From a virus, in IMG/VR virus record IMGVR_UViG_3300030012_003189, positions 1 to 64,000 of that record: 64,000 bases of DNA; one strand, 5' to 3'. Each line of letters begins with the position of its first letter. Positions within the stretch are counted from its first letter, which is position 1. The position numbers and the translations under genes were made by a program. This document shows, one piece after another, positions 1 through 63,999 of this stretch. A model generated the notes under the pieces. That model saw only the letters and a list, made by a program, of their open reading frames with translations. It was not told the origin of the DNA and did no database searches.

Positions 1-3000
1 ACTATCCAATGAAGTTAGATAAGAACCAGTTTCCGATGCTAATTGATTTATTCTTACATCAGTAGATGCTGTATATGAATTTAAAGATGTTGTTGAATCA
101 GAAGATGATATAAATCCTAATGCGGTAATCTGTGCAGAACCACTAAGAACACCTGTTGGTAAAGCATTTGTAGTATCAATAGATATTACCCAATACCCAT
201 CATAATATACATAAAGATTACCATCATTTGATTTCCACCATAAATCACCCTCTGATGGTGAACCTGGTGCTGAATCTGAAACAGTTACACTTGCACCACC
301 ACCTGCTGAAGAACTAATAAAGAATCCATCACTACCAGAGTTGATTGTTATATTTGTACCTGGTAATAAAGAACCACTTAAAAATCCTAAACCAGTTAAT
401 TGTGAACTTCCACTTACTATTCCACCAGGTAATTGTTCTGATGAACTTATAATACCACTATCTAATGAAGTTAGATATGAAGAAGTTGCTGCACTTAATG
501 CATCTACCTCTGTTTGTATAGAAGAACTAAATGTGTTTAGTGATGTTGTTGAATCAGATGAAGAAATAAATCCTAATCCAGTTATCTGTGCGGAAGATGA
601 TATCGTACCACTTGGTAATTGTGATTCTATTGAACCACTAAGTACACCATCACTCAGATTTACTAATGGATGCCAAGCGCCAGCGTGTGCAAAATATCCT
701 CTACCCGTTGAATGAACATGAGCGAACATACCATGATAAGTTGATGCGTTTGGTAAATCTCCTTCGTTAGAATAAACATTACCAAATAAAACTTTATTAC
801 CACCCATGTCTAAATCAGCGCCAGTTATATGAGCTACTGATTGAGCAGAACTACTAACTAATCCACCCGGTAGTTGTTCTGAACCACTAACAATTCCACT
901 TGGAATTGATGTGATATCTGTAAAGTCAACTGAACCCGAAGATGTTAAGTATGAACTTGTAGCTGCTGATAATCCATCTACTTCTGTTTGAATGGATGAT
1001 GTGAATGTATTTAGAGATGTGTTTTCACCTCCACTTTCTGATACAAATCCTAATGCGGTTATTTGTGCAGATGAACTAATTAGTACAGAACCTGTAAATG
1101 ATTCTAAATTACTTAATTGTACATTTGCTGAAGATGTAAATGCGTTTAATGATGTATTCTCTCCTCCACTTTCAGAAACGAATCCTAAAGCAGTAATCTG
1201 TTCAGATGAACTTACTATATTACTATCTAAAGAAGTTAGGTAAGAAGATGTTGCTGCACTTAATCCATCTACTTCAGTTTGTATAGAAGAAGTAAATGTA
1301 TTTAGTGATGTTGTTGAGTCTGAAGAAGAAATAAATCCTAATCCAGTTATTTGTTCTGAACCTGATATTGTTCCTGATGGAGCTTTTACATTACCAGCGG
1401 TAACATCCCCACCTGTAAATGTACCTTCTACTACATTTTGAACTACATTACCAGCGTTATTTATTAATTCAATCGATGATGTTGTAATTCTAATATTACC
1501 AATTTTTATTTGTTCTGAATCTGCTTTTATTTCAGAAAGTACTGCACCATCTTTTACAAATTTGATTGATTCTGATGTGATAAATAAATCTCTAAAGGGT
1601 TTATCTAATGAACCTAAATCATAGGTACTTGGTGTTGCAGGTAATATTGAACCACTAAATGTTTGTGTTCCATTAAATGTATTTGAAGATGTTACTGCAA
1701 ATCCTAAATCAGTAACTTGTTGTGCCCCACTTACTATACCACTACCTCTTAATTCAAATGAACTTGATAATTGGTCTGAACCACTAACAGTTCCAGCAGG
1801 CGCTTGTGTTAAATAAGAACCACTCTCTCCTTCTAATGAACCTATTCTCTGTGCAAATGATTCAGTTACTGTTTGTACCTGGTCTAATCTATCATCAAAT
1901 GATGCTGATTCTACTTGTCCTATACTTCCAGAGCTAAATCCTAAAGCAGTAATTTGTGCAGAACCTGATATTGTTCCAGCAGGTCCAATTGTACTCAATT
2001 GTCCGTTGTTAGCTGTTATATTTGTACCAGCTATAGCATTAACTAAATCAACTACCGATTCTCTTCTACTTCCATCGGAATTTGAAGCATCTATAAAACC
2101 AATGCTATCATTAGCTACATCTATTACCGAAGGTGATAAACTTCCTAAATCAGTACTACCACCACCGCCACCACCAGCATTAGTTCCATTAATTAAGAAC
2201 ATAGATACAGTTGAACGACCACCTTCTGAATCTGAATTGTGAAGTGCAATCGGTTCTTCCGAAGATGCATCTATCTTACCAACTATTCTAACATAAGAAC
2301 CACTTTCAAAGAATGTAGTAGATACACCACCACCATATGCGTAATCTGGTTCTTGAGATGGTGAACCTATACCAAAGGTTGAACCACTAACATCTGTCCA
2401 ATCAGTATTGTTTAAACTTCTTTGCCATTTAAATAATGCAACTCTATCATTATCATTTGCTTTAAATAATGTAAAGTTAGAATTCAATAAGTAAGTACCA
2501 CTTGTAGTAATTCGTACAAAAGAACCATCTGATATAGTCCAATTTGAACTACCTGTTTGGAAAAGTGGTGTTGATATAAATTCTAAGTTTTGATATGAAT
2601 CGGTAAGTGCTTTTCTTTTGAAAGAACCACTACCACTCATTTCTAACTCTATATCAGAAACTTCACCAGTTATTAAACTACCACTTCTAAATCCTAAATC
2701 TTGTAATTGTTCTGAACCACTAATTATATCTGTTCCACCTAAAACTTGAATCGAACCTGATACTAATCCACCTGGTAGTTGTTCTGATGAGCTTACTATA
2801 TTATCAGGTAAGTTAGCTAACTCTTCATAGTTAACTTGGATTGATGCACTTAATAATGTTTTTGCTGCACTAGCTCTGGCTTCATATCGTTCATCGTATG
2901 ATGATGTAAGTTGTGAAGAACCACTAACTATACTTCTACCTATTGTTTCATAAGAGGAGGTAGCTCCCTCAATATTGTCTAATCGTGCATCTATTGATGC

Positions 3001-4833
3001 CGTTTCTGTTTCAATAGTACCGAATCTACTTTGGAATGAAGAAGTTGTAGATTCAATAGTTTCAAATCTATTTTGGAATGAAGAAGTTGTTGATTCTATA
3101 CTTCCAAATTTATTTTCAAAAGAAGAAGTTGTTACTTCTAAATTATTTAATCTTATTGTAGTTGAAGCGGTATATGCATTTATACCTTCAATTGATTCTG
3201 TAAATTCATTTAATGATGTATTTTCATTTGATGAACTAAATGATTCTAAATTACTTAATTGTATTGTAGCTGAAGATGTAAAGTTATTTAAGTGACTTAC
3301 AGATGCTTCAGAAGATGAAGATACGAATCCTAATGCAGTTATTTGTGCAGATGAACTGATGAATACACTTCCAGTAAATGAGTTAATAGAAGCAGTTGCA
3401 TTTGCTAAATCATTAACTCTAGTTTCTAATGAAGATGAAGTAAATTCAATTCTTTCTAACCTTTGGTCGGTTGATGATGTATATGTGTTAAATCCATCTA
3501 ATCTCGTATCAGTAGATGATGTGTAAGAATTTAGAGATGTAATTATTGTTTTTTCTTCGTATGAACTGGTATTAGATTCAATTTGTTCAACTCTTTGTTC
3601 TAATGATGAAGTTGATGATTCTATATTATCTAATCTATCATCGGTAGATGCTGTATATGAATTAAGAGATGTATTCTCACCTCCACTACTACTTACAAAT
3701 CCCAATTCTGTTATTTGTGCTGAACCTGATATTGTTCCAGCTGGTATTGTATCTCCACTACTACTTACAAATCCTAAAGAAGTAATCTGTGCTGAACTAC
3801 TAACTATATCACTTCCACCTAATATTTGAATTGAACCACTAACAATACCACTCCCAATTGATTCATATGATGATGTAGCTTCTTCTAAAGAATCTAATCT
3901 ATTATCTTGGGCAACAGTACCAGTTTGTAATATAGTAACTCTATTATCTAATGAAGCAGTTGTTGATTCTATATCCAACAATCTTGTATCATTAGATGCG
4001 GTATATGTATTGACAGAACCTAATACATCAACTATCTGTTCTGAACCTGATACTACATTAGCAGGTAATTGTTCTGATGATGATATTAAACCAACTGGTA
4101 ATTGTTCTGATGAACTTAAAATACCCGTGCCAGCCAATACTTGTACTGAACCACTTACTAAACCAGCAGGTAAATTTGCTAAACTATCGAAATCTACTTG
4201 TTCTGAACCTGAGATTACATCATCTCCACCTGGTCTAAGTACTGAACCACTTACGATTCCTTCACCTAAATCAGTTGCGTATCTACTATCTAAATCTGAG
4301 TGTAATTGTGCAGATGATGATATTATTCCAGCAGGTAGTTGTTCTGAAGATGAAAGGATTCCAGTACTACCTAAGACTTGAATAGAACCACTAATTAGAC
4401 CCGCAGGTAAATTATCTAAACCTGTAAATGATACTTGAGATGAACCAGATACTACTCCTAACCCACCTACACTTAAAAAAGAACCACTTACTACACCATC
4501 ACCATCGGTGTTTAAATATCTTGTATCGAATGTAGATAATAATTGTGCTGCTCCAGATACTATTCCACCAGGCAATTGTTCAGATGAACTTATTAATCCA
4601 CCTGGTAATTGTTCCGAACCACTAAATACTCCTCTACCAGATAATTCAATGCCTGATAAGGTACTACCATCACCGAAAAACGATGAACCACTAATGTTTC
4701 CACTAGCACTAATAGAACCAGTAACATTTAGAGAACCTGTAAAGTTCGATGAACCACTTACTTGAAAATCTCCACTTACTGCGGATGCGGTTACAACACC
4801 ACTAATTTGTTTACTTGATATTAGATTGGCCAT
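1..4833 (-). CDS. Giant Ser/Thr/Gly-rich repetitive virion fibre protein (>=1611 aa, runs off the window; missing from ORF track)
   Basis: ATG at 4833-4831 overlaps the upstream stop (TAATG). Manual translation MANLISSKQISGVVTASAVSGDFQVSGSS... shows no stop down to position 1. Contains repeats (SSSEQLPGG, SGSAQITALGF, TSLNTFTSSIQTEVDGLSAATSSYLTS), coiled-coil segments and a C1q-like block. Follows the neck genes. Confidence 0.9.
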   Translation of the reverse strand, partial: MANLISSKQISGVVTASAVSGDFQVSGSSNFTGSLNVTGSISASGNISGSSFFGDGSTLSGIELSGRGVFSGSEQLPGGLISSSEQLPGGIVSGAAQLLSTFDTRYLNTDGDGVVSGSFLSVGGLGVVSGSSQVSFTGLDNLPAGLISGSIQVLGSTGILSSSEQLPAGIISSSAQLHSDLDSRYATDLGEGIVSGSVLRPGGDDVISGSEQVDFDSLANLPAGLVSGSVQVLAGTGILSSSEQLPVGLISSSEQLPANVVSGSEQIVDVLGSVNTYTASNDTRLLDIESTTASLDNRVTILQTGTVAQDNRLDSLEEATSSYESIGSGIVSGSIQILGGSDIVSSSAQITSLGFVSSSGDTIPAGTISGSAQITELGFVSSSGGENTSLNSYTASTDDRLDNIESSTSSLEQRVEQIESNTSSYEEKTIITSLNSYTSSTDTRLDGFNTYTSSTDQRLERIEFTSSSLETRVNDLANATASINSFTGSVFISSSAQITALGFVSSSSEASVSHLNNFTSSATIQLSNLESFSSSNENTSLNEFTESIEGINAYTASTTIRLNNLEVTTSSFENKFGSIESTTSSFQNRFETIESTTSSFQSRFGTIETETASIDARLDNIEGATSSYETIGRSIVSGSSQLTSSYDERYEARASAAKTLLSASIQVNYEELANLPDNIVSSSEQLPGGLVSGSIQVLGGTDIISGSEQLQDLGFRSGSLITGEVSDIELEMSGSGSFKRKALTDSYQNLEFISTPLFQTGSSNWTISDGSFVRITTSGTYLLNSNFTLFKANDNDRVALFKWQRSLNNTDWTDVSGSTFGIGSPSQEPDYAYGGGVSTTFFESGSYVRIVGKIDASSEEPIALHNSDSEGGRSTVSMFLINGTNAGGGGGGSTDLGSLSPSVIDVANDSIGFIDASNSDGSRRESVVDLVNAIAGTNITANNGQLSTIGPAGTISGSAQITALGFSSGSIGQVESASFDDRLDQVQTVTESFAQRIGSLEGESGSYLTQAPAGTVSGSDQLSSSFELRGSGIVSGAQQVTDLGFAVTSSNTFNGTQTFSGSILPATPSTYDLGSLDKPFRDLFITSESIKFVKDGAVLSEIKADSEQIKIGNIRITTSSIELINNAGNVVQNVVEGTFTGGDVTAGNVKAPSGTISGSEQITGLGFISSSDSTTSLNTFTSSIQTEVDGLSAATSSYLTSLDSNIVSSSEQITALGFVSESGGENTSLNAFTSSANVQLSNLESFTGSVLISSSAQITALGFVSESGGENTSLNTFTSSIQTEVDGLSAATSSYLTSSGSVDFTDITSIPSGIVSGSEQLPGGLVSSSAQSVAHITGADLDMGGNKVLFGNVYSNEGDLPNASTYHGMFAHVHSTGRGYFAHAGAWHPLVNLSDGVLSGSIESQLPSGTISSSAQITGLGFISSSDSTTSLNTFSSSIQTEVDALSAATSSYLTSLDSGIISSSEQLPGGIVSGSSQLTGLGFLSGSLLPGTNITINSGSDGFFISSSAGGGASVTVSDSAPGSPSEGDLWWKSNDGNLYVYYDGYWVISIDTTNALPTGVLSGSAQITALGFISSSDSTTSLNSYTASTDVRINQLASETGSYLTSLDS

Positions 4834-5198
4834 TATCTACTTACTATCTTTCCTTTTACTAAAAAATCTCCAGCAACTATATCACCCGGTGATGCTGCTA
4901 TCGCTTGATTGAATGTAACCACTATATTTGTACCATCATCTACAATCTCATAATATGATGATGGAGTTTTGACACTTTGTAAATAAATATCAACATAATC
5001 AGAAGAAGAATCAATTTTTAGTTCTTCATCTAAAAATTTTTTGTTTGAGAGGGTCAAAATAAAGTTTGAACCATCTAAACTTATAGAATTTGGAGTATGA
5101 TGAGAAACAAACATATCATCAAATACACTCTGTATAAAATTATTTGTTTGAGCTTTTCCATCAAATGGTGTGATTATATTTGGTTTCTTTCTACTCAT
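4833..5198 (-). CDS. Putative neck/collar-associated beta-sandwich protein
   Basis: 121 aa, translationally coupled to neighbours; VDIYLQ...IVVTFN...FLVKGKI resembles the adjacent ORF and the C-terminus of 5521-6660. Confidence 0.6.
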   Translation of the reverse strand: MSRKKPNIITPFDGKAQTNNFIQSVFDDMFVSHHTPNSISLDGSNFILTLSNKKFLDEELKIDSSSDYVDIYLQSVKTPSSYYEIVDDGTNIVVTFNQAIAASPGDIVAGDFLVKGKIVSR

Positions 5199-5524
5199 AA
5201 TCTTTGTAAATCTCCCTCTACTGATATTTTATCCGAACCAACCAATGCATAACTAAAGTTTTCTTTTTTAAATTTGATGAAGAAATCCCTTCCTACTTGT
5301 TCAAAAATATAATCCGCATCTAATATAAATTGTCCATTTATAAATACATCGAATCTTGAATGGTCTGGTCTAAGATTATCAAATCTATTATTCATATCTT
5401 TTATTTTACAATTTGATATTTTCCAAATGTAGTGATTTACATCAGCTAAATTTACCTCTTCCATTATGAATTCATTTGGTTCATTTAGTTGTTGTAAAAC
5501 ATCTCTTATTTCTTTTACACTCAT
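5195..5524 (-). CDS. Putative neck/collar-associated beta-sandwich protein
   Basis: 109 aa; FDVFINGQFI...IKFKKENFSYAL...ISVEGDL, paralogous to neighbours. Confidence 0.6.
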   Translation of the reverse strand: MSVKEIRDVLQQLNEPNEFIMEEVNLADVNHYIWKISNCKIKDMNNRFDNLRPDHSRFDVFINGQFILDADYIFEQVGRDFFIKFKKENFSYALVGSDKISVEGDLQRL

Positions 5525-6660
5525 AATTCTCTAAATTTTCCAACAAATGCAAATTCATCGGTTGATTCTAGTTCGTAACCTAATTCTGTTGAAGATGCTG
5601 ATGAACCAGTGGTAAAATTAAACTCTACCGAATCATCAGAACTACTTACAAAGTAAGAATATTTTGTTGATGGAATAAATAATCCATTTATGTAAACTTT
5701 GAACCAATTATCAACATCAAAGTTTCCTTCTAATGATGGTGGTAGTTTTGGAACTTCTACATCATTAATTTTAACAGTGTCCGCATCTACAAAACTACCC
5801 GATACTGAACCTCTTGTTGCTAAGAAATCTAAAACATCAGCGTATTGATTTAATGCTTTTTGTTTAATAGGATTTACCCCTCCACCTCCACCTGTTAAGT
5901 CTGCTTCATATCCAAAAACAACTTTTTTTGGTGTGTATTCTTTGATAGTAGTAGGTTTATTATTGAATTCAGATGGAAGTAAATAAGCGTTTACTGCCAT
6001 TGTAAATGAAGTTCTAACTATTCTTTCACTTCCTTGTCCTACTTCTGTTTGATTATCAAATGAGTCGATTCTTACCCTAAATTTGTATTTATCTTTATCA
6101 CCCCAATATTCATCTGTAGCGTATTGGAATGCTTCTACGATTTTATTCATATGTTCTGTAAAGTTTGTCCAAATCATCACTTCATATGAAACAGTTACAT
6201 AATCAGGCATCGTAATGTTATATGCTTCAACATTAGGATTTACCTCATTCATCAAACTAAATTTATCGTACTTTTGTTTTTTATTGTATTTTGTTAATGT
6301 AGAATAAGATACATTTCTATTCATAGTATTAGCTAAACTATCATCTCTTGCTATACTATTTCTTTTATACATAATAAGAGGGATTTGGATTCTACCTCTT
6401 TGGTCTCTTATGTATCCATCTTTAGTAGCTGCTTTCCATCTTTCTGGATTTCCATATATCAATGGTACTTTTACTTTAGTTCCATTCTCTTCTACATCAG
6501 GAATGACTACATCAGTCATATATTCCATCATAGCAAAATCTATATCAAATAGCGTAATACCAACTTTTGATTTTTGGTCAATAGCGATTTGTTGCGCTCT
6601 ATTTTTAGTTTTACTAATTGGGTCTGTTGCTTTTTTATTATATCCTGATATATCTGCCAT
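5521..6660 (-). CDS. Tail completion / sheath terminator protein (T4 gp15-like) with extra C-terminal domain
   Basis: KVPLIYGNPERW, IQIPLIMYKR, PDYVTVSYEVMIWT motifs; follows gp13- and gp14-like genes. Confidence 0.65.
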   Translation of the reverse strand: MADISGYNKKATDPISKTKNRAQQIAIDQKSKVGITLFDIDFAMMEYMTDVVIPDVEENGTKVKVPLIYGNPERWKAATKDGYIRDQRGRIQIPLIMYKRNSIARDDSLANTMNRNVSYSTLTKYNKKQKYDKFSLMNEVNPNVEAYNITMPDYVTVSYEVMIWTNFTEHMNKIVEAFQYATDEYWGDKDKYKFRVRIDSFDNQTEVGQGSERIVRTSFTMAVNAYLLPSEFNNKPTTIKEYTPKKVVFGYEADLTGGGGGVNPIKQKALNQYADVLDFLATRGSVSGSFVDADTVKINDVEVPKLPPSLEGNFDVDNWFKVYINGLFIPSTKYSYFVSSSDDSVEFNFTTGSSASSTELGYELESTDEFAFVGKFREL

Positions 6661-7115
6661 TATACTATTCTCTCCTCTATATTAAGTTGAGACCTTCTAA
6701 CCATAAATGTAGAACATATGATTGAGAACTTCTCTTCAGGTCTACCATATACTAATTGGTTTTGACCAACTTTATCAATTTCAAAATATGCATTATTATG
6801 AAAAATAATATCTCCAATTTCAGGAAATAAATTTTTCTCTTCTAAAGTTGCCCTATTAAATCTAAATTCAGCATTTTGTGCTCTATCAGGTCCGAATCCT
6901 TCATATTCTATAGTACTTTCATCCCTCTCAATTAAACAAGCACATTGTACGGCAGGTAAGTATGATTTACCCAAAGATTCCCCATATAGATTAGTTCTTG
7001 TTTCAGATAAAGATAATTTAAATATCTCAACTGTAGTCTGAACTACTACATCCACTAATTCTTTAGAAATCTTTTCAAAGAATGCTAAATCTTTTTGTTG
7101 TACAAATCTTGCCAT
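6660..7115 (-). CDS. Neck / head-closure protein (T4 gp14-like)
   Basis: NLYGES, FPEIGDIIFHNNAYFEI motifs; synteny. Confidence 0.65.
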   Translation of the reverse strand: MARFVQQKDLAFFEKISKELVDVVVQTTVEIFKLSLSETRTNLYGESLGKSYLPAVQCACLIERDESTIEYEGFGPDRAQNAEFRFNRATLEEKNLFPEIGDIIFHNNAYFEIDKVGQNQLVYGRPEEKFSIICSTFMVRRSQLNIEERIV

Positions 7116-7119
7116 TTGC

Positions 7120-8265
7120 TTATCCTATATAAATGTTCAAAGGTACTTTAGATATAACTCTCTGTTGTGCATCTGATTGGTCTGCTTCACTCTGATACCT
7201 TTCTTTATCTGATAAATCATTAAGTACATCTCTTAATTGTTCTATCAAAGCATCTTTCTCAGTTTGAGCTTCTGACCTAAGAGCCGCTCCATCTAATGAT
7301 ACCTCAGAACCAGGAATAGGTACAGATGAGAATTTTTCTCTAATTGCTCCTAATAATTCTTTAGCTAATGCTAATGTATATTTTCTAATCCATTGTTTAC
7401 CAACATCATTTATCCTACTATAGTTATGGAAATCATATCCTGTATTTGAATAATCTGCTACTACTCCATCTGTTACAGATGTTGCTGATTGGTCGAATTC
7501 TGATTTTACAATATATTCAAAATACAGTGTTGATTTTTTCACTGGTTTTGGGAATATTTGTAGTTTATTGTTTACTAAATTAAATGTAAATGCTGATTTT
7601 CTAATTTGGTCATTAAATTCAATAGCTCCAATTCTAAGTAAATCTTCATATATTGGCATCAATACAAATTGTGCCGCTGGTGAGAATGAACCAAATCCAA
7701 ACTCATCAATTAAGTTTAGAGTTCCTTGTCCACTTACTGAATATGGGTCAAAGAATTTATTTATTGCTGGTGTTGCCTCATAAAATACTTTTGTTACATT
7801 GATTCTATTTCCACTCTCACTTACATCTGCCCATAAAGATTGTAAGTCATATTCTTGTGAACCACTATTAAGTTCTATATTACCTTTTTTTACATCAACT
7901 TTTCCACCAACATTAGCGTATGTTCCATATGAATCTGATATTTCAATAAGGTTAGGTAGTGGGTTACCAGCTATTTTTTTCTGAGTATAATCTGAACCCG
8001 TAGGTTGACCTTGCAAAGATGTAAGGTTGTTTTTTATATTAAATTGATTTACTTGTGCCGAATATTCTGATACTGCTTCTTCGAAACATGCATAGAAGTT
8101 TAAATCTACTAATTCAACATCAACGATTGGGTATCCCAATCTTTTAGCACACCAAGATGCTACTTTAGGCCCATCTGTTTGATATTCTGTATCTGTATCA
8201 TAAATACCAAATGGCGTTGAACCCGAAATTACATTATCTGCTGAACCACTCCAGAAGTTTGACAT
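7120..8265 (-). CDS. Neck / head-tail adaptor protein (T4 gp13-like)
   Basis: RLGYPIVDVEL, WIRKYTLALAKELLGAIREKF, IPGSEVSLDG motifs; downstream of MCP. Confidence 0.75.
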   Translation of the reverse strand: MSNFWSGSADNVISGSTPFGIYDTDTEYQTDGPKVASWCAKRLGYPIVDVELVDLNFYACFEEAVSEYSAQVNQFNIKNNLTSLQGQPTGSDYTQKKIAGNPLPNLIEISDSYGTYANVGGKVDVKKGNIELNSGSQEYDLQSLWADVSESGNRINVTKVFYEATPAINKFFDPYSVSGQGTLNLIDEFGFGSFSPAAQFVLMPIYEDLLRIGAIEFNDQIRKSAFTFNLVNNKLQIFPKPVKKSTLYFEYIVKSEFDQSATSVTDGVVADYSNTGYDFHNYSRINDVGKQWIRKYTLALAKELLGAIREKFSSVPIPGSEVSLDGAALRSEAQTEKDALIEQLRDVLNDLSDKERYQSEADQSDAQQRVISKVPLNIYIG

Positions 8266-8293
8266 ATTTCTCTCCTTTGTATTATTTCTCTTA

Positions 8294-8301
8294 TATAAAT
8301 A
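8294..8301 (-). promoter_or_regulatory. Conserved TATTTATA promoter-like motif upstream of neck operon
   Basis: Plus-strand TATAAATA in the intergenic gap; recurs in most gaps of the window. Confidence 0.6.
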
Positions 8302-8332
8302 TAGAATAAAAAGATATCACTAAAAAAGACAC

Positions 8333-8359
8333 AAAAAAAGGGGAAATTTCTTTCCCCTT
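8333..8359 (-). terminator. Rho-independent terminator after major capsid gene
   Basis: Minus strand AAGGGGAAA-GAAA-TTTCCCCTT followed by a T tract. Confidence 0.85.
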
Positions 8360-8385
8360 AATTTATCTTACTAAGTTATCTCAGA

Positions 8386-10008
8386 TTAGATTTGGTCCAT
8401 ATCTGCGATATCGATAGTACCATAGAATTCTGGTCTTACCATTTTCTTAGCGTATCTAGTCATTACACCTCTTCGAGGAGTAAAGTTAGATGGGTCATAT
8501 ACCAACGGAGTCATGATTAGTGGTACATATGGTGCGTAAACCGCTCCACTTTCAAGGAAGTTATTTCCTTTGTATCCTAACAAGATTTGGTTAGTAGTCA
8601 TGTAAGGATTTTTGTACACAGTATATCTGTTAGATAATGCTCCGATAGCAGTTACACCTGCTGCGAACTCCATAGCATCTTTTCCAGCGTTTACAGTAAA
8701 CTGAGGAATTGATTCTAAGATAGTACATACATCAGGAGATGCTACGATAAAGTTAGCTCCACCTCTAAGAGTTAATTGGTGAATCTTATTAGATACTTTA
8801 TTGATTTTAGTACCTAATGTAGAGAACCAAGTGTTCTTAGTATAAGCTTGACCTGTAAATGAAGAAGTAGTAAATACTGAACCATTCCACTCTTCACCAA
8901 CTTTTGCTGACCATTTATCGTTAGTCAATGCACCAGCTCTAATCATATCTAAGATTTCTAAGTCAATCTCTAATGAGATATACTCAGATAACATAGATGT
9001 TAATTCAGCTTCAGCATCGATTGAATGGTAAGCGTTAAGGTCTTGCGCCAATTCAGGTGTCCATACTGCTTTCAACTTTCTAGTCTTAGCAACGATAGCC
9101 TCTGATTTCAACTCTAGGTCGATTTCAGGAATATCAAGTACAGTACCAGAACCTGCGTTTCCACCAGCATTGTTTACTGGGTCTCTATCTTCAAAGTCAC
9201 CTCTGTTAGTAGAAACAGGAACATTTGCGAACTTAACTCTAGCACCATCAACTAATGGTGAACCAGCAGATGCTGATACGAAGAATATGTAGTCAGTACC
9301 ACTTACTCTGTTATGCTCACCTACAGTTTCAACAAGAGCAACAGATGCAGAATCAATTGTAAATGCTTTGATTGCATCATCATCAGCTGTTGATGAAATG
9401 TTAGATTTAGCTATAGTTAATTTATGAATTTCTCCAGCTGCGATTGATGCGCTGATAGAACTATCATAATTTACATCTGAAAAAGATGCACTTGCAGCTG
9501 CTACATTAGCGGCTACTACATCTGCAGATTGGTCGTTAAGGGTATATCCATAACGTCCACTTCCATATAGACCATTTTTAGCAACATTAGTTGAACCTAA
9601 GTCCGAACCATCACCACCAAATAATGAAGAACCACTATAAGTAGTTGCTCCAAATTGTTGGTTGTTGTATTTAAAGTCTAGATAGAAAATAAGTCCTGAT
9701 GGTAAGTTCATTGGTTGAACAGAAACGAAGTTTTTCGCTGCAATTTCACCAAAGATTCTTCTTACCAAAGGAAGAGCTACACCATTCCACTCCTCATTAC
9801 CTGAGCCGTTAGAAGTAGCATTAGCTTCATCAAGCAATTGTTTTGCTTGGTTTTCTAAAAGAACCGACATTTGATGTTGGTCTCTTTCTTGTAAACCTTC
9901 AAGAAGTCCAGTTTTCTCCCATTTGTTCTTTAATCCTCTTGTTTCCGCAAGCATTACAGACTGTGGGTTCTTTCCTTCCATAAGTTTATTTAAATCAAAA
10001 TTTGCCAT
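8386..10008 (-). CDS. gp23: Major capsid protein (T4 gp23-like)
   Basis: LPLVRR, VSVQPMNLPSGLIFYLDF, AKTRKLKAVWTPELAQDLNAYHSIDAEAEL, YAPYVPL, FTPRRGVMTRY are hallmark gp23 motifs; strong SD AAGGAG. Confidence 0.97.
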   Translation of the reverse strand: MANFDLNKLMEGKNPQSVMLAETRGLKNKWEKTGLLEGLQERDQHQMSVLLENQAKQLLDEANATSNGSGNEEWNGVALPLVRRIFGEIAAKNFVSVQPMNLPSGLIFYLDFKYNNQQFGATTYSGSSLFGGDGSDLGSTNVAKNGLYGSGRYGYTLNDQSADVVAANVAAASASFSDVNYDSSISASIAAGEIHKLTIAKSNISSTADDDAIKAFTIDSASVALVETVGEHNRVSGTDYIFFVSASAGSPLVDGARVKFANVPVSTNRGDFEDRDPVNNAGGNAGSGTVLDIPEIDLELKSEAIVAKTRKLKAVWTPELAQDLNAYHSIDAEAELTSMLSEYISLEIDLEILDMIRAGALTNDKWSAKVGEEWNGSVFTTSSFTGQAYTKNTWFSTLGTKINKVSNKIHQLTLRGGANFIVASPDVCTILESIPQFTVNAGKDAMEFAAGVTAIGALSNRYTVYKNPYMTTNQILLGYKGNNFLESGAVYAPYVPLIMTPLVYDPSNFTPRRGVMTRYAKKMVRPEFYGTIDIADMDQI

Positions 10009-11362: not shown

Positions 11363-11629
11363 TTATCTTCGTTTTTTTCTTTTCTTTGTAAATAATCTGA
11401 TTGTTCTATCACCATTATCTATCTTTTCCAACATAGTTAACTTCTGTTGTTCCCTTACTGCTGCTTGTTTTTGTTTTCTTCTTACAGTTGTAGGTTTTGT
11501 GTATTGTTGTTTAGTTCTCAACAATTGAAGATGACCAGATTCATCTATTCTTCTTTTAAAAATTTTAAGTGCTTTTTGTATGTTTCCGTTTCTTACTTGT
11601 ACAGAAACTAATTTTGGGTGTTTACTCAT
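11363..11629 (-). CDS. rpsU: Phage-encoded ribosomal protein bS21
   Basis: VQVRNGNIQKALKIFKRRIDESG...QYTKPTTVRRKQKQAAVR matches the S21 family pattern; location among head genes is as described for bS21 phages. Confidence 0.9.
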   Translation of the reverse strand: MSKHPKLVSVQVRNGNIQKALKIFKRRIDESGHLQLLRTKQQYTKPTTVRRKQKQAAVREQQKLTMLEKIDNGDRTIRLFTKKRKKRR

Positions 11630-42214: not shown

Positions 42215-42369
42215 TTAGATTCTCTAATATCTACTAATAATTGCATTACTTCTTCTAACTTATATTTTGATTCTTGCCCTTCACACAAATCTTGACAACA
42301 TATATCCAAATTTCTGTGAATAAATTGTAACTTTTCATCTATCTCATCCCATTTGTTTTCCAATCCCAT
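42211..42369 (-). CDS. 52-aa hypothetical protein (not in track)
   Basis: MGLENKWDEIDEKLQFIHRNLDICCQDLCEGQESKYKLEEVMQLLVDIRESK; ATGA overlap with the next gene. Confidence 0.65.
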   Translation of the reverse strand: MGLENKWDEIDEKLQFIHRNLDICCQDLCEGQESKYKLEEVMQLLVDIRESK

Positions 42370-42371
42370 AC

Positions 42372-46137: not shown

Positions 46138-46194
46138 TTGGTTTAGATTATGGTGTTGTATATAAATATATAAAAATATAGAAAACGATAAAAA

Positions 46195-47181
46195 TTAGAA
46201 TAGTTTTTTTACCTTATCTCGCCATGCCCATTTGTTGTGGTACTTCATCATCCATTCAGATAATCTTATCCAATTATCTAATTGCTCTTCATAAGAATCT
46301 CTACATATGATTTCTACCATAGAATCAAACTCTTCTTTTGATGATGCTCTATATTTGTAATCTACATCTCCCCAATCGGAATGTAGTATTGGAAGTTTTC
46401 CGTAATCAACGGCTTGGAAGATTGAATATCCAAATGGTTCATTTGTATGACAGGAATGTGAAATACTCCAATCCTTTTTCATAAATGAATCTAAAATCTG
46501 AATATCCCATTGGTAAAATTTAATATCACTAAAATTATATTGGTTAGTTTCTACTATGTTTTTCCAATCATATTTACTACTTAAAACAAATCCTCTATGA
46601 TTATCCATATAGTGAATATTTTTACGAGATTCAATACGAGAAGTAAATCCAATTTTAGAATCTGTTAATCTTTGTAGTAAAAAATCTTTTTTAAATTCAT
46701 AAAAGTTTGGAATTGTTATAGTATTATTAGGATAATCTGTAAATAATTGTGAATCTGTTAGTCCAATCCAAATTCTTTGTTTACAATACTTCATTAAATC
46801 ATCAATTGCTTCGGTATCTATATTAGTTTGGAATTGTTTTGTAGAATCACCATACTTTAACATATCGGGTAAATATGCATGTACAAATATATTAGTCCAT
46901 TTATCTTTATACTTCCAAAGATGTTCTCTTTTGTGATAATTCGCATGTAAAAAATGGATTTCTTCACAATCTTCTAAAAGTTGTTCTGATTTTTTAGGAT
47001 TATCGTAATGAAAATGATAATTTGTTAAAGATGTTTCAAATCCAACAGGTTTTCTACCATCTACAAATATAAAATAATCATCTGATAGTTCAGGTAGTAC
47101 TAAGTTAATAAAATGATTTGTCCATAAATCAGCTCCACCTTGTATGATATTTCCAAAACCAGTTGTTACTAATAGTTTCAT
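46195..47181 (-). CDS. GT-B fold (GT4-like) glycosyltransferase
   Basis: GGAD near N-terminus; FTSRIESRKN; EPFGYSIFQAVDYGKLPI. Confidence 0.7.
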   Translation of the reverse strand: MKLLVTTGFGNIIQGGADLWTNHFINLVLPELSDDYFIFVDGRKPVGFETSLTNYHFHYDNPKKSEQLLEDCEEIHFLHANYHKREHLWKYKDKWTNIFVHAYLPDMLKYGDSTKQFQTNIDTEAIDDLMKYCKQRIWIGLTDSQLFTDYPNNTITIPNFYEFKKDFLLQRLTDSKIGFTSRIESRKNIHYMDNHRGFVLSSKYDWKNIVETNQYNFSDIKFYQWDIQILDSFMKKDWSISHSCHTNEPFGYSIFQAVDYGKLPILHSDWGDVDYKYRASSKEEFDSMVEIICRDSYEEQLDNWIRLSEWMMKYHNKWAWRDKVKKLF

Positions 47182-52100: not shown

Positions 52101-53188
52101 TAATAAACATCACCTGCTTCGGATACTATATTTTCTCTTCTTAATTTACCATAATTAATTACAGTTCTATTTTCTACAGAAAAATCTCTTAATAATTCAG
52201 TAGCATCTAATTTATTTTCTTGTACAACTTGAAAATCTCCTAAATCGTTTCTTGACTTCCTAAATATTTTTATTCTAGCTACATCTCCAGTAAATGTTTT
52301 TAAATTTTCTAATCTTATTTCAGCATATGATGCAGTAACATTTGAACCAGTCACAACTGCATCTTCTACAGATTCAAATTGTAATGAATAAGATACTGGT
52401 TGGAATTCATGCACTATATTGTTTATAAGAAAGGGTTTTCTAACTAACATCTCATCTGCATTAATTACTTCTAATACTGAAGATGAATATCCCAATGAAG
52501 GAATTTGAAGAGTTGTATTCTCCTCCATTGATTGAGTGAACTTATTTCCTTCTTCTAATTTTATTCTGTATTGTGATGGAGCTGTCCAAGTAGAAAAATC
52601 AGAACCTGAATCTGGTACTTCGGGTATACCACTAACTGAACCTGATTTGTTCAATGTCATTTCTGTTTTTACTAATAGTGGTTTTTCTATTTCAGTAACA
52701 GAAAATGATGGTCTTTTAAAAAATCTTACTTGTGTTTTATTTGGAATCTTTGGATTGATTTTGAATTGTTGAGTCCATCTAACATTTTGTATCCCTCTAA
52801 ATTCTTCAGGTACTTTCCTTTCCCTACCTCTATCATCTATATATGTTTCTAATTCAGCAAGTATTCGCAATGTACCAACTCCTATCGGAGTATCATCATA
52901 AACATGAATTGACATTACTATAGAGTTACCTTCTCTAAATGTTCTATCTCCTTGCTTTCCAGGTTCAATATATAATGGGTTTCCATTTACATCTAAAGCT
53001 TCAAATCTAACTTTTGAACCTTTAACAAAAAAAGAACTACCTTCAAATAAAAAAGCATTCTTACCACCAGTTAGTGTTCTTTCTAACTCAGTAACATTAA
53101 AATAAGGGGAATCTGATGAACTATCATCAATGAAAACCTTAGCTTTTCCTAAATTTAGTAAAGGTGAATATTTTTTTAATACTGCCAT
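49133..53188 (-). CDS. Long tail fibre with C-terminal peptidase S74 intramolecular chaperone
   Basis: SSDERLKENI...GILFNW...IGVIAQEIQKVLPEVV...YEKLTPLLLEAIKEL; ASxGxIGGFT repeats. Confidence 0.85.
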   Translation of the reverse strand: MAVLKKYSPLLNLGKAKVFIDDSSSDSPYFNVTELERTLTGGKNAFLFEGSSFFVKGSKVRFEALDVNGNPLYIEPGKQGDRTFREGNSIVMSIHVYDDTPIGVGTLRILAELETYIDDRGRERKVPEEFRGIQNVRWTQQFKINPKIPNKTQVRFFKRPSFSVTEIEKPLLVKTEMTLNKSGSVSGIPEVPDSGSDFSTWTAPSQYRIKLEEGNKFTQSMEENTTLQIPSLGYSSSVLEVINADEMLVRKPFLINNIVHEFQPVSYSLQFESVEDAVVTGSNVTASYAEIRLENLKTFTGDVARIKIFRKSRNDLGDFQVVQENKLDATELLRDFSVENRTVINYGKLRRENIVSEAGDVYYTTSSGVEIHNDKLINSLEVKGNHSIESNGAIGEFEIVSGSEYSFGFTARYSGSGESISTDTLRFLIVTSSNNTTNALVTSQSIDLLSGSIDRDPTGLGNIQRIQKNFFAKTTGKCQIRVEANTDSTTGRFLFSRLSLKNAEESSYSPDEYTAIVDIPRKNPTEQFDFRVEFYDINNNFIPIKVEQSVPFTKGNQALGLEASINVKNSGIADAGDILNVEGGVVQIASTNIQSSTIAGLGDPTNFSQELAVATSSLAQATASLQSATASLGADISGSLAAGAQSASNAAESASAATLIAITGSENAVLSGSLSASIAITGNQNAVLSGSAFATIAGDNSVLSGSAFAGNAALSASVSGTVDPSTGKLTKNPTPSGDGLFLGADNLGFYESDTWKTYMSSSGQFFLSGTGDNSLEWTGEQLQIKGDITASTGNIGGFTLDDNKLIGFVNAGATKAVQLDSGQSGDWTFDGDDVGGFLLTTSGSGAVNSVVNNAWVAEPNQKKFYFRVGSDNQFIKFQQRDSAGGLEISASNFSVSGSVVEAQSASFEHVSITSKDNVFSVSPAGRMIANDADIKGDISASGGSIGGFTIQGDQLLGSDSALILDGSGTPKIKFVSSSVDVVTLSSQNSLSPIVLSGAPTMLGSSFTSQNDSDLESFTDFFAHSLSITQSPTTMTETITTGGSGLRFPDAGNVSADFDGVTATFTGTLDPQTASNPFVSSVMESFNGVVGFGSNSCKIGIRIKKSDGTVVSSTERTLSTSYVGGGQAIHTLGTSGSHAFSLGVDLEDGENYSFETFIKDGSSFMSATAQGVTLSSTFRTPDIGAISVSVPTSTTIQPFTEISRGGFQVVSDANPSALKVVKLPADQSAANALSVSGSIEASGNITAFASSDERLKENITTIPDSLEKVKNLRGILFNWKDGYTPKVHPYGTNRDIGVIAQEIQKVLPEVVKENVHNKFLGVKYEKLTPLLLEAIKELSDKIENLENKLKDK

Positions 53189-53215: not shown

Positions 53216-54031
53216 TTAAACAACTGCTCTACCTTTCATATTTTCCCAATCCCTATTTGTTCTCACAACATCATTGGTTTCTTCTACGGCATTTAAAACA
53301 TTCGATTCAGTATCTAAATTCATAGCTAAGTATATTAGAGCCGATAAGTCTTTAGGTAAACAATGTCCTCCAAATCCAAAATCACCATCTGGTCCTGGTA
53401 CATTCCAATGTGATTTACCTAATCTATCATCTAATGTTGCATATTCAACAACTTTATCGTAATCAATATTTAACTTTTCACACACTTGATATATTTCATT
53501 AGCAAAAGAAACTTTAGTTGCCAAAAATGAATTGGTCAAATATTTTACCATTTCAGCGTGGGTAGAATCTGTTTTAATTATATGAGCTTTTGGAAATACT
53601 TTTGAGTATATTCTTCTTAATTTTGTAGTTGATGGTCTTGGTCCTCCTAAGATAATTCTATTTTGATTATTAAAATCTTCTACTGCATTAGCTTCAGTTA
53701 AAAACTCTGGATTGAAAACTATATCAATATCGTAATTTGAATTCCATCGTGCAGTAGTACCTGGTGATACTGTCGATTTTACAACGATAGTTTTACATTT
53801 TTTTAATTTACATATTTTATCAATTGTCCATTCAACTAATTCAGTACTACAACTACCATCACTATTCATTGGTGTTGGTAAACAAACGAAAACAATATTT
53901 TGTGACATAGCTTCTGTTTCGCCTGATGTTCTTTTGCTTTCATCTAAATCATAAGTGTAAACATCGAAGTAATTTTTAAATTTTTGATAAATTGCATTAC
54001 CAACAAATCCTTGTCCTATAATTCCTATCAT
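53216..54031 (-). CDS. ugd: UDP-glucose/GDP-mannose 6-dehydrogenase-like (lacks the C-terminal domain)
   Basis: GQGFVG, CLPTP, KSTVSPGT, FNPEFL.E, AEMVKY..N, GFGGHCLPKD. Confidence 0.85.
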   Translation of the reverse strand: MIGIIGQGFVGNAIYQKFKNYFDVYTYDLDESKRTSGETEAMSQNIVFVCLPTPMNSDGSCSTELVEWTIDKICKLKKCKTIVVKSTVSPGTTARWNSNYDIDIVFNPEFLTEANAVEDFNNQNRIILGGPRPSTTKLRRIYSKVFPKAHIIKTDSTHAEMVKYLTNSFLATKVSFANEIYQVCEKLNIDYDKVVEYATLDDRLGKSHWNVPGPDGDFGFGGHCLPKDLSALIYLAMNLDTESNVLNAVEETNDVVRTNRDWENMKGRAVV

Positions 54032-61431: not shown

Positions 61432-61463
61432 TAAATATACGAAAAATTTTTCAATTTTCCAAA
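61432..61463 (-). promoter_or_regulatory. Bacteroidota sigma70-type promoter (TTTG-N20-TATATTTA) upstream of primase
   Basis: Minus strand TTTG GAAAATTGAAAAATTTTTCG TATATTTA versus consensus TTTG-N19-21-TAnnTTTG. Confidence 0.55.
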
Positions 61464-61855
61464 TCTTTTCTAAAGAATTTTCCTAAAATATTATCATTAA
61501 AGCAATGAGATTCATATAAAACATTATGTTTTATCTGTTCTTCTAACTCATAATAAGTCATTGCTTTCTTTGTTTTACAGAATCGTAAGATGAATTTTTC
61601 GATATCATCACCATCCCACTTCTTTACTTCAGCGTGTGATGATTGATAATCTTTCCAATTTGATTCTTTTACTACCTTTCTTTTTCTCTTTGTACCTTTT
61701 AGTGGTGGTAGTGTTCGGTGTGCGTACAAAGATTTTCTTCCGATATAAAATTCACCTGATATTTTCTTTCGGATTTTGTATATAAATCCTATTGAATCTT
61801 CAGGCATATCGGAAATTTCGGTAATCAGTTTACCTTCATATTTCCATGTGGGCAT
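61451..61855 (-). CDS. GIY-YIG-like nuclease
   Basis: GFIYKI...FYIGRK...WKDYQSS...YYE...FNDNI; ATG at 61855 (track uses TTG at 61861). Confidence 0.7.
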   Translation of the reverse strand: MPTWKYEGKLITEISDMPEDSIGFIYKIRKKISGEFYIGRKSLYAHRTLPPLKGTKRKRKVVKESNWKDYQSSHAEVKKWDGDDIEKFILRFCKTKKAMTYYELEEQIKHNVLYESHCFNDNILGKFFRKDLEN

Positions 61856-61866
61856 AGTCAAAAAGT

Positions 61867-62084: not shown

Positions 62085-63359
62085 TTAAACATCAATTCTA
62101 ACTATAAAGTTAACTGGATAGTCAGGTAAGTTTTTAATTGGTTTTGGTAATTTAGCCACAGCCATCATTTCGTTATCATTATTATATAAACCAATTGTGG
62201 TTATATATGGTGCTAAATAAGAACCAGTCAAATCAGTTGAACCAGATTCCCAATAATCATCCCAACTACCACTAACATATTCGTTAGTTACTGATGATGT
62301 AACTGAACCACTATAAAATGGTTTTCTATCTATACTGTATATATCTCTAATTTTTACAGTTTTAGCTGGTTCACCTCTTACAACTGGTGTTGTTGTAAAA
62401 TTTTGAGAACCACTTTCAAATACCGTTACTGCTGTTGGGTTCTGAGAATAATTAAATTCACAATCTCCAACTTCTAAGAAAAACTCATGCTCATAAATTG
62501 TATGAGTTCCTTTAAATGTTAAATCATATCCATTTAGTAGTGAAGTACAATTAGCATCGTTTAAAACAAATAAGCCTTCACCATAAAAAACATTTCCAAC
62601 TATATAAGCACTCCAATTTGTAATTAGACCAAATGGATTATCATCATCAGCAAATCTAATAATACCACACTCAAAATCCATTGTAAGTATTGATACAGCG
62701 TTCATAGCAGTTACTCTCGTATCTGCTCCACCAATTGGAACTATTGTTAAAACATTTAACGAACCACTTTCAAAGTTTGTTAAATCAGTTGTTCCGTGAT
62801 ATTCATTTCCATCGAAATCAGCAAAGTGTATTTCACCTGTTTCATTATTTAATAAAAGAATCTTAGCACATCTCGTACTTTCAACCAAATTTCCATATCC
62901 ATCATCAACAATCTTTAATCTTTTTGATTCTACTTTAGGTGTGTGTATGAATAATTCTACCGAACCTGGTTTTATTTCTTCACCATATTGTGATTGTGAT
63001 ACTGCTAATAACTCTATGTGATTAGTTAATACTCTTTGATTACCATAAGCAAATTGTGGATGTTGTTTCCCTGCGCCTGTTAATGGTGATAATTTATTTG
63101 ATGGATGATAATATTTTGCTTTTGTTGATTGATATAATTGCCTTTGATAAAATTCATTAGTTTTTGCATCATTAATTGGGTCAAAGAATGTATCTAAATC
63201 ATAAGCACCACCCGGTATAGTATTCAGTACTATAACTTCATCTTTTACTGATGCTGAATGAGCAGTGTAAATCTCATAACTACCCGAACCATGTGTATAG
63301 GTTTTATGAGTCCTAATAGGTCTAATGTTTACGTTTTCTGCTGGAATTTCTTTTAACAT
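62085..63359 (-). CDS. Baseplate/tail structural protein
   Basis: YGEEIKPGS, DDGYGNL, GNVFYGEG, EFNYSQNPT, PYITTIGLYNNDNEMMAVAKL; SD AAGGAG; TATTTATA at 63377-63384. Confidence 0.65.
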   Translation of the reverse strand: MLKEIPAENVNIRPIRTHKTYTHGSGSYEIYTAHSASVKDEVIVLNTIPGGAYDLDTFFDPINDAKTNEFYQRQLYQSTKAKYYHPSNKLSPLTGAGKQHPQFAYGNQRVLTNHIELLAVSQSQYGEEIKPGSVELFIHTPKVESKRLKIVDDGYGNLVESTRCAKILLLNNETGEIHFADFDGNEYHGTTDLTNFESGSLNVLTIVPIGGADTRVTAMNAVSILTMDFECGIIRFADDDNPFGLITNWSAYIVGNVFYGEGLFVLNDANCTSLLNGYDLTFKGTHTIYEHEFFLEVGDCEFNYSQNPTAVTVFESGSQNFTTTPVVRGEPAKTVKIRDIYSIDRKPFYSGSVTSSVTNEYVSGSWDDYWESGSTDLTGSYLAPYITTIGLYNNDNEMMAVAKLPKPIKNLPDYPVNFIVRIDV

Positions 63360-63447: not shown

Positions 63448-63999
63448 TTAAAAGTCTAATTTAACTTTTACTAATATTTCTTTATCAAACGATTTTGCAA
63501 TCGGTTGAGATGTTTTAGCTACTGCTAACATTTCGTTTGCATTATTGAATAATCCAATTGTTGTAATATAAACTCTTGGGTCTCTCTTAAACGATGATAC
63601 TGCAAATGCGTTATCTGAACCACTTACGAATGTTGGGTTGTTAGAGAAGTTAAACTCTCTGTTGTTTGCTCTAACAAAATAATGTGATGTAGATACATTC
63701 TCAGTTCTTCTTGCTTCGAAATCTGCTCCGTTCTTAATTGCTGCGTACAACCAGTGATGTGCTTTCTTATCAGCATCTACTCCAGTAAACAATGAACTAG
63801 TCGTTGAGTAATTCAATGCCGCTGAACCTGTATGTGCTGAGAAACCTATTTCAGCTTCTAATGCGCCAGGATTAAGTAGTATGATTCCTTGGTCAGGATA
63901 AAATACACCATAACCTTGTCCTACTGAGAATGAATTACCATCTGTAGAACCTGATGTATATTTACTATCTATAGTTGCTTCTGCTGAAGAACCTAAGTT
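63448..63999 (-). CDS. Baseplate/tail structural protein, paralog of 62085-63359 (5' end outside window)
   Basis: Frame stays open to the window end (NLGSSAEATIDSK...YGVFYPDQG...); EFNFSNNPT, YITTIGLFNNANEMLAVAK. Confidence 0.75.
   Translation of the reverse strand, partial: NLGSSAEATIDSKYTSGSTDGNSFSVGQGYGVFYPDQGIILLNPGALEAEIGFSAHTGSAALNYSTTSSLFTGVDADKKAHHWLYAAIKNGADFEARRTENVSTSHYFVRANNREFNFSNNPTFVSGSDNAFAVSSFKRDPRVYITTIGLFNNANEMLAVAKTSQPIAKSFDKEILVKVKLDF

Follow-up and report, generated by a model that had tools for sequence, protein, structure and literature searches.

A surface-biased Ser-Gly-Ser signature in the virion proteins of a marine T4-like myovirus and its possible role as a glycan acceptor

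Virion proteins encoded on the first 64,000 nucleotides (here called the window) of the IMG/VR virus record IMGVR_UViG_3300030012_003189 carry a Ser-Gly-Ser signature that is real, lies at the level of the peptide and is biased toward the particle surface. Its core is the tripeptide [ST]GS, and genes for sugar synthesis and transfer lie between the structural blocks of the same window. An earlier note on this DNA had proposed that the phage makes its own glycan and attaches it at a private sequon, [ST]-[GAS]-S, thereby coating capsid, neck, baseplate and fibers. We favor a narrower reading, with a probability of roughly 0.4: exposed [ST]GS sites at the end of a beta-strand would be O-glycosylated in the cytoplasm, a glycosyltransferase (GT) conserved in the lineage would start the glycan and a variable gene island would elaborate it. 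That some virion protein of this phage is glycosylated at all seems to us slightly better than an even bet.

Ser-Gly-Ser is over-represented in exterior virion proteins

Expected motif counts were derived from composition-preserving shuffles, protein by protein. An unbiased scan of the proteome revealed SGS as the most over-represented of all 8,000 tripeptides (79 observed, 19.8 expected), and it still ranked first when the three giant fibers were left out (26 against 9.1). The exterior proteins concerned are listed here with their counts of the six-member class [ST]-[GAS]-S (class motifs). The minus strand holds every gene of the window.

1-4833, minus strand: giant tail fiber, 1611 residues, 3'-open at the window edge; 96 class motifs against 35.7 expected (z 10.8), 32 SGS
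5521-6660, minus strand: neck or tail-proximal virion protein, 379 residues; 4 class motifs against 0.8 expected
7120-8265, minus strand: gp13-like head-tail adaptor (neck) by PHROGs/Pfam, 381 residues; 4 class motifs against 1.3 expected, 4 [ST]GS against 0.4
8386-10008, minus strand: gp23-like major capsid protein (MCP) by PHROGs/Pfam; 6 class motifs against 1.8 expected, just 1 SGS
47193-49133, minus strand: S/T/G-rich exterior-type protein, 646 residues; class motifs depleted, 4 against 9.6 expected
49133-53188, minus strand: tail fiber with a C-terminal Peptidase_S74 intramolecular chaperone, 1351 residues; 34 class motifs against 10.2 expected (z 7.5), 13 SGS
62085-63359, minus strand: peripheral baseplate-module protein, 424 residues; 9 class motifs against 0.9 expected (z 8.6), 7 [ST]GS against 0.4
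63448-64701 on the contig (in the window the C-terminal 183 codons, 63448-63999), minus strand: baseplate-module protein, 417 residues; 13 class motifs against 2.6 expected, 9 [ST]GS against 0.8

Most matches in the fibers are borne by repeats, namely phi-S[GS]S-xQ[IL] units every 11-14 residues and 14-residue coiled-coil units of the form T[SA]S-xxxR. Since these hits ride on repeats, the z-scores of the fibers overstate the number of independent events. The real test of the excess lies in the non-repeat exterior proteins. Without the giant fibers, the exterior proteins hold 26 SGS where 4.5 are expected (P ~4e-12), and 64 members of the six-member class where 25.0 are expected.

The enrichment that the earlier note had seen in exterior proteins is therefore strong, but its true core is only [ST]GS, and one exterior-type protein (47193-49133) is depleted. 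Consistent enrichment in related genomes was found for SGS and TGS only; there the ranks of SSS, TSS and SAS run into the hundreds or thousands, and in this phage these three derive mostly from fiber repeats. Of the six-member sequon, only [ST]GS survives.

The reported scarcity of the motif inside the particle and in enzymes was borne out. The motif count is zero in portal, terminase, protease and scaffold, in the internal proteins of the head and in nearly every enzyme, the inner baseplate proteins (gp6-like wedge, small wedge or hub proteins) have essentially none, and SGS is absent from all 10 head-internal, portal and scaffold proteins. In the 62 non-virion proteins we counted 0 SGS against 2.9 expected (P 0.057) and 5 members of the six-member class against 14.7 (P 0.0035), and the number of motif-free non-virion proteins equals the Poisson expectation. 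We considered an active avoidance of the motif by cytoplasmic enzymes and do not claim it, as the depletion is marginal and not demonstrable for [ST]GS.

The signature lies in the peptide and not in composition or codons

Permutations of the same composition do not share the excess: SGS occurs 79 times, GSS 24 times and SSG 17 times, which rules out local richness in serine and glycine as the cause. T4 served as a negative control. Its 28 virion proteins, including all fibers, contain 30 class motifs against 33.5 expected and 4 SGS against 5.8, and genome-wide SGS ranks only 2,932nd among the tripeptides of T4. The motif thus exceeds both composition and its own permutations, as over-representation of a sequon should. 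The N-x-[ST] sequon is not enriched in this phage.

A cause at the DNA level was rejected as well. The word AGTGGTTC was found in frame 0 only (43/43), and the codon bias of the motif is also present in enzymes; therefore selection acts on the peptide and not on the DNA. The AGT-GGT-TCN codons of the motif reflect a genome-wide bias for Ser-Gly and Gly-Ser codon pairs. Across the whole contig, AGT makes up about 65% of the Ser codons that precede a Gly (about 22% in the background) and GGT about 80% of the Gly codons that precede a Ser (about 54% in the background), with an equal bias in virion proteins and enzymes.

Collagen-like Gly-Ser-Ser repeats were a further candidate source. They were dismissed, as neither this phage nor G006, a close relative described below, has (Gly-X-Y)n runs of six or more units with X and Y being Ser or Thr. 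Residues in collagen-like GXY runs number 1,680 in the relative G001 and 468 in Microcystis phage Mel-JY01. The carriers of the motif belong to at least nine mutually unrelated protein families, with the exception of a 150-residue paralogous tail common to 62085-63359 and 63448-64701.

Conservation among relatives

The record is a single contig of 102,940 bp with an estimated completeness of 54%. The window covers the first 64 kb of this partial assembly of a marine myovirus, whose genome probably measures about 210 kb. Its MCP is about 50% identical to the MCPs of Flavobacterium phage immuto, Mel-JY01 and a 484-kb uncultured phage, and 37% identical to that of Rhodothermus phage RM378. The phage is a member of a distant T4-like lineage together with immuto, Mel-JY01 and RM378. 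The closest complete relative found is G006 (213.6 kb, MCP identity 79%, full synteny); more distant complete relatives are G001 (252.6 kb, MCP identity 69%) and G004 (368.8 kb).

Comparison with G006 revealed that 46/55 [ST]GS sites are shared (84%), while generic triplets show an identity of 0.26-0.60. The sites are thus under purifying selection. Common with G006 are 4/4 [ST]GS sites of the adaptor and 6/7 sites of the 424-residue baseplate-module protein; orthologues of the 379-residue neck protein have 5 motifs in G006 and 0 in G001. Of the [ST]GS sites in the 417-residue baseplate-module protein, five recur in 35-39 of 40 homologues (59-97% identity), with Ser and Thr interchanging at position 1 and a strict Ser at position 3. 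A 244-kb contig encodes a baseplate protein that is 94% identical to that of this phage. In G001 the orthologues have 14 [ST]GS sites against 33, and only 6 are shared.

The lineage as a whole shows the excess. Ratios of observed to expected [ST]GS were calculated per genome for proteins of 80-1000 residues, with collagen-like runs masked.

Lineage: this phage 2.42; G006 1.97; G001 1.60; G004 1.45
Cultured phages of the lineage: immuto 2.20; Mel-JY01 2.78; RM378 2.66
Outgroups: T4 0.57; S-SKS1 1.13; Melnitz 1.18; P-SSM2 1.40

The [ST]GS excess is therefore a trait of the lineage (seven genomes, 1.45-2.78) and not specific to a fold. In Mel-JY01 (PP395634, about 600-9000), two very SGS-rich fiber genes, one of 805 residues, collagen-like and with 30 SGS, the other of 508 residues with 24 motifs, are directly followed by a 1234-residue frame with a GT4 domain, a further GT beside Ser-rich fibers.

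Sites are predicted at strand ends of exposed domains

Gly at position 2 of the motif is almost fixed. Residue -1 is preferentially Ile, Val or Thr and residue +3 Phe or Ser, the context of a beta-strand that ends and enters a turn. An AlphaFold model of the 417-residue baseplate-module protein, poor overall (mean predicted local distance difference test score, pLDDT, of 50) and used for local secondary structure only, has SGS 200-202 on the turn of a hairpin and a strand ending at SGS 231-233, both in the better central part. PHROGs and Pfam returned nothing for most baseplate-module proteins; we assign them to the peripheral baseplate because their gene order adjoins a gp6-like wedge protein.

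The earlier note had expected the motifs to face outward on predicted structures. In the tail sheaths of G006 and immuto, 16/16 sites fall outside the part that corresponds to the core of T4 gp18; they lie in the variable part, which in gp18 forms the outward-facing domains. In the MCP, 5/6 class motifs fall between two gp23-homologous segments, that is, in the region of the insertion domain. By these comparisons the sites sit in outward-facing, lineage-specific domains.

The MCP load is typical, as 77 homologues share the signal with a median of 5 motifs. Accumulation in the variable middle of the MCP, as the earlier note had described, is real in excess and position but weak, with one SGS. 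A glycan shield on the capsid finds no footing in an MCP with a single [ST]GS.

A soluble sugar gene island adjoins the fiber genes

The earlier note had described about 25 sugar genes between the structural blocks, and these we confirm. The main genes are the following; the short-chain dehydrogenase/reductase family is abbreviated SDR and thiamine diphosphate ThDP.

27820-30590, minus strand: two paralogous proteins of about 460 residues, virus-only family, predicted GT-B glycosyltransferase fold
30580-40758, minus strand: nucleotide-sugar tailoring genes, with a split ThDP E1 beta/alpha, two radical-SAM proteins and three SDR epimerase/dehydratases; further an RmlC-like 3,5-epimerase, an SGNH-like protein, a third GT-B paralogue and a free LamG-like open reading frame
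34865-36037, minus strand: this third GT-B paralogue, same virus-only family
40772-44290, minus strand: two fusions of a GT7 (beta-1,4-GalT-like) domain with a ConA/LamG lectin domain, flanking a 158-residue cytidylyltransferase
44510-47181, minus strand: GT2-like protein (weak match), Methyltransf_24 methyltransferase and GT4-like protein of 328 residues
53216-55541, minus strand: UDP-glucose dehydrogenase, RmlB-type dTDP-glucose 4,6-dehydratase and small methyltransferase

Besides the RmlB-type dehydratase (E 1.5e-58), the block as a whole contains three or four other SDRs and an RmlC-type epimerase. All proteins of the block are soluble, with at most one hydrophobic segment each, and therefore a flippase, a polymerase and an initiating phosphoglycosyltransferase are missing from it. 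Indeed, we found no membrane or lipid-carrier machinery of the Wzx/Wzy/WecA type in the block. What it does contain is a set of cytoplasmic phage GTs, namely two GT7, one GT2-like, one GT4-like and three GT-B paralogues.

The model of a GT-B paralogue (457 residues, pLDDT 72.7) has a GT-B glycosyltransferase fold. Its structural neighbors are T4 beta-glucosyltransferase (Z 12.1, root-mean-square deviation 6.0 over 285 residues), a Helicobacter pylori fucosyltransferase (Z 11.0), TarM (Z 10.8), the DNA-arabinosylation GT of phage HY126 (Z 10.6) and T4 alpha-glucosyltransferase (Z 9.0). The top neighbors are tied within about 1 Z unit, and the fold therefore does not fix the acceptor. Database searches with the 457-residue paralogue returned only virus-only clusters and a chance-level GT10 lead.

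A known enzyme with a protein Ser/Thr acceptor was identified neither in this contig nor in G006, and a TibC homologue was found in none of this contig, G006 and the 110 loci examined. The loose parallel to proteoglycan-linker chemistry drawn in the earlier note falls away: the SDR beside the UDP-glucose dehydrogenase is the RmlB-type enzyme and not a UDP-xylose synthase, and the GT7 proteins matched beta4GalT1 and beta4GalT7 equally well.

Several features of the sugar genes were observed in passing. The UDP-glucose dehydrogenase (53216-54031, minus strand) has 271 residues and lacks the C-terminal UDP-binding domain; since the same form occurs in G001 at 72% identity, this is not an artefact of assembly. 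Minimal ThDP-dependent E1 beta- and alpha-like subunits (30580-31128 and 36022-36669, minus strand) lie amid a deoxysugar pathway, which suggests that a sugar with a two-carbon branch, of the kind known from yersiniose or avilamycin, is made. An 1181-residue protein (24119-27664, minus strand) with an N-terminal domain like that of cytidylyltransferases and nicotinamide mononucleotide (NMN) adenylyltransferases is kept across the lineage and always borders the variable sugar island; its homologue in immuto is annotated as a NadR-type NMN adenylyltransferase. A second small variable sugar locus (contig 88960-91709) consists of four genes without counterpart in G006 or G001, including a GT2 (PF00535 match at 90328-90642).

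The island varies and a candidate initiator is shared

GT repertoires beside the motif differ within the lineage: GT7-LamG fusions in this phage and G006, TibC with ADP-heptose genes in G001, and GT2/GT4 in immuto, Mel-JY01 and RM378. The motif is therefore not private in the sense of the earlier note, since it occurs across a lineage with at least three GT repertoires. That note had also asked whether related phages swap motif and GT set together. We saw no swap in kind, only a lower density of sites in G001, which is compatible with a partial co-variation of motif and GTs and is confounded by divergence.

G001 has no gene of the 27.8-47.2 kb block. Its syntenic slot, between the 1181-residue protein and the fiber, encodes a GT4-methyltransferase-GT25 fusion, a split HldE-like kinase and nucleotidyltransferase and a 383-residue protein that is a true member of the TibC family of protein-serine O-heptosyltransferases. 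The only PDB relatives of the latter are two TibC entries (PDB 4RAP, E 2.5e-48, nearly full length), and it has no match to WaaC/WaaF, the heptosyltransferases of lipopolysaccharide (LPS), at E <= 1. The slot therefore holds protein-glycosylation machinery in at least one relative.

A lineage-core GT4 of 463 residues (148226-149617 in G006) is present together with a 420-residue neighbor in six lineage genomes and absent from four outgroups. Its best PDB relative is the chlorovirus protein B736L (PDB 3OY2, E 1.9e-9). This distribution is the pattern that would be expected of a shared initiating enzyme. We also considered a GtfA/GtfB-like pair as the identity of the core GT4 and its neighbor, and rejected it for lack of sequence support, the best match being B736L.

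Proposed cytoplasmic glycosylation and its alternatives

On the reading that we favor, virion proteins would be glycosylated, [ST]GS would be the acceptor and the core GT4 nearest to B736L is the candidate initiator. Acceptor sites would be the exposed [IVT]-[ST]-G-S positions, where a beta-strand passes into a turn, on fibers, peripheral baseplate, neck and, in relatives, sheath. O-glycosylation would take place in the cytoplasm before or during assembly, the lineage-conserved GT would start the glycan, and its completion would fall to the variable island that adjoins the fiber genes. That island would, in this phage, supply dTDP-6-deoxy or branched sugars by means of RmlB, RmlC, SDRs, the ThDP E1 pair, radical SAM enzymes and methyltransferases, which the three GT-B paralogues, the GT4-like and GT2-like proteins and the two GT7-lectin fusions would add.

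A precedent for the acceptor site comes from the bacterial autotransporter heptosyltransferases (BAHT) such as TibC and Aah. These are cytoplasmic protein-serine heptosyltransferases that act on a serine where the loop of a strand-loop-strand structure begins, and their substrates have no sequence consensus (PMC3835316). The acceptor serine of the TibC type matches the preference of [ST]GS for Ile, Val or Thr in position -1 and its predicted location at a hairpin, which supports reading the motif as an acceptor. We regard the wider proposal as unlikely, namely that the whole aquatic T4-like lineage, whose hosts are Flavobacteriia, cyanobacteria and Rhodothermus, O-glycosylates exposed tail, baseplate, neck and fiber proteins at strand-end [ST]GS sites, with the GT4 as starter and hypervariable islands as diversifiers.

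Several observations weigh against glycosylation at [ST]GS. The motif persists over at least three unrelated GT repertoires and is hence untied to the island of this phage. The co-distribution of core GT4 and motif is phylogenetically confounded, as a single clade counts for roughly one event, and this phage, with a contig that is 54% complete, cannot be scored for the core GT4. The margin between lineage and outgroups is thin (G004 1.45, P-SSM2 1.40). GT7 enzymes elongate sugars and are not initiators on protein, and the GT-B paralogues resemble T4 beta-glucosyltransferase as closely as anything (Z 12.1). The depleted S/T-rich exterior-type protein at 47193-49133, which has no homologue in G006 or G001, is a counter-example. 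For immuto, Mel-JY01 and RM378, as for the lineage in general, the literature yielded no account of a glycosylated virion. Finally, conserved positions with a fixed Gly at position 2 are equally expected of a structural tight turn.

This last point leads to the strongest competitor, in which [ST]GS is a lineage-specific structural ST-turn or tight turn that closes beta-hairpins of surface domains, while the sugar genes serve another target. The near-fixed Gly, the five near-invariant sites at 59-97% identity, the position of sites at strand ends or hairpin turns, the indifference of the motif to the resident GT island and its place in regular fiber repeat units all fit such a turn. However, the T4 orthologues of the same fold (gp13, gp18, gp23) do not use [ST]GS, and the motif arose in at least nine unrelated families. 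It is moreover confined to exposed proteins and missing from internal ones and enzymes, and permutations of the same composition that are equally capable of a turn are not enriched. We consider this a serious explanation, if a somewhat unlikely one.

A second alternative is that the island remodels the host envelope (LPS, capsule or S-layer), for example to block superinfection, with the SGS signature being unrelated. Such a role is an old proposal for LPS gene clusters in marine cyanomyoviruses. RmlB/C, SDRs, GT2, GT4 and UDP-glucose dehydrogenase are indeed enzyme types of O-antigen and capsule loci, and P-SSM2 has many such genes without a clear [ST]GS excess. The soluble island, in contrast, offers no flippase, polymerase, initiating phosphoglycosyltransferase or other membrane protein and lies amid late fiber genes on the same strand, and the equivalent island of G001 has a TibC-family protein-serine GT instead of an LPS heptosyltransferase. 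We regard remodeling of the envelope as quite improbable.

The island might also glycosylate the phage DNA as an anti-restriction measure, as in T4 and RB69, with the three GT-B paralogues acting as DNA GTs. Phage GTs that place diverse sugars on DNA are established (PMC13326640; Pyle 2024 as related in PMC12619734), and T4 beta-glucosyltransferase, the HY126 GT and T4 alpha-glucosyltransferase are among the neighbors of the 457-residue paralogue. Glycosylated phage DNA carries 5-hydroxymethyl- or 5-hydroxy-pyrimidines made via ThyA homologues with N177D, L143D/E or D169N (PMC13326640). The only ThyA-family gene of this phage, of G006 and of G001 retains L143, D169 and N177 and encodes a canonical thymidylate synthase; the complete G006 genome has a single match to PF00303, the ThyA family. 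The alternative route to a hydroxyl base consists of a C5-methyltransferase and a TET enzyme. No DNA C5-methyltransferase (PF00145) was found in a search whose positive controls worked, and no TET/JBP match (PF12851) in a search that had no positive control. None of the known kinds of route to a glycosylatable base thus appears to be encoded, as far as the 54% complete contig of this phage goes, and with the fucosyltransferase and TarM within about 1 Z unit of T4 beta-glucosyltransferase we regard DNA as a very improbable target.

Relation to known glycosylation systems

Glycosylation of virion proteins at [ST]GS would place this lineage beside a small number of precedents. To our knowledge, virion glycosylation has been shown only for a few mycobacteriophages and giant algal viruses. 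O-glycosylated virions of the mycobacteriophages Che8, Corndog and Myrna were described by Freeman et al. 2023 (PMC10527164), as summarized in PMC12619734. As in those phages, GTs encoded by the phage would act in the cytoplasm and glycosylate its own structural proteins. According to that summary, the mycobacteriophage glycans were found by mass spectrometry on C-terminal extensions of capsid and tail-tube subunits, in actinobacterial siphoviruses and myoviruses. Here, in contrast, internal strand-turn [ST]GS sites on fibers, baseplate, neck and sheath are predicted from sequence, in a T4-like lineage of Gram-negative and cyanobacterial hosts with a much larger sugar pathway.

The systems TibC-TibA and Aah-AIDA-I resemble G001, with its TibC homologue and ADP-heptose-type genes, and share the strand-loop-strand context with [ST]GS. 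They differ from this phage and G006, which have a GT7-LamG island and a 6-deoxy-sugar pathway and no TibC homologue. With the chloroviruses PBCV-1 and NY-2A, the lineage shares a core GT4 nearest to B736L and a virus-borne cytoplasmic glycosylation machinery. Chlorovirus capsid glycans are N-linked at non-canonical sites of the MCP, whereas here the MCP is the weakest carrier and the linkage would be to oxygen.

In the systems of serine-rich repeat proteins and SD-repeat proteins, cytoplasmic GT-B enzymes (GtfA/GtfB, SdgA/SdgB) glycosylate serines in repeats of the Ser-x-Ser type, and Foldseek matches of the GT-B paralogue include SdgB and GtfA, although weakly (TM score 0.3). The acceptors of the phage would be isolated turns and not long disordered Ser-rich repeats, and the core GT4 and its neighbor have no sequence match to GtfA/B. 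Marine T4-like cyanophages such as P-SSM2 also have large sets of nucleotide-sugar and GT genes. Unlike this lineage, P-SSM2 lacks the core GT4, and its SGS excess is marginal (1.40) with no TGS excess.

The target of sugar and LPS-type genes in marine T4-like phages is a long-standing question, and the signature is common to three cultured phages, immuto, Mel-JY01 and RM378. If [ST]GS is a glycosylation site, it would be a predictive sequon for phage glycoproteins, the first defined for any phage, and the glycans would form a phage counterpart of variable surface glycan coats. It would also explain why hypervariable sugar islands lie beside fiber genes, which would bear on host range, on the stability of the particle and on its escape from grazers or receptors, and it would add the GT7-lectin fusions and the virus-only GT-B family to the protein-glycosylating enzymes. 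If it is not, [ST]GS is still a striking lineage-specific structural motif of phage surface domains.

Other genes of the window and of its relatives

PHROGs and Pfam searches of the window also matched a gp21-like protease, a gp20-like portal, a gp17-like terminase, an SbcCD fusion, a primase and a segE-like endonuclease. The latter, a homing endonuclease of the GIY-YIG type (61451-61861, minus strand, E 3e-23), has the primase on one side and the baseplate module on the other and is kept in G006 and G001. Kept in the same two genomes is a homologue of ribosomal protein bS21 (11363-11629, minus strand, phrog_21469, E 1e-9). G001 in addition encodes a full TonB-dependent receptor with Plug and beta-barrel (E 3e-35, record positions 233072-235048, plus strand), that is, a gene for an outer-membrane protein inside a phage genome.

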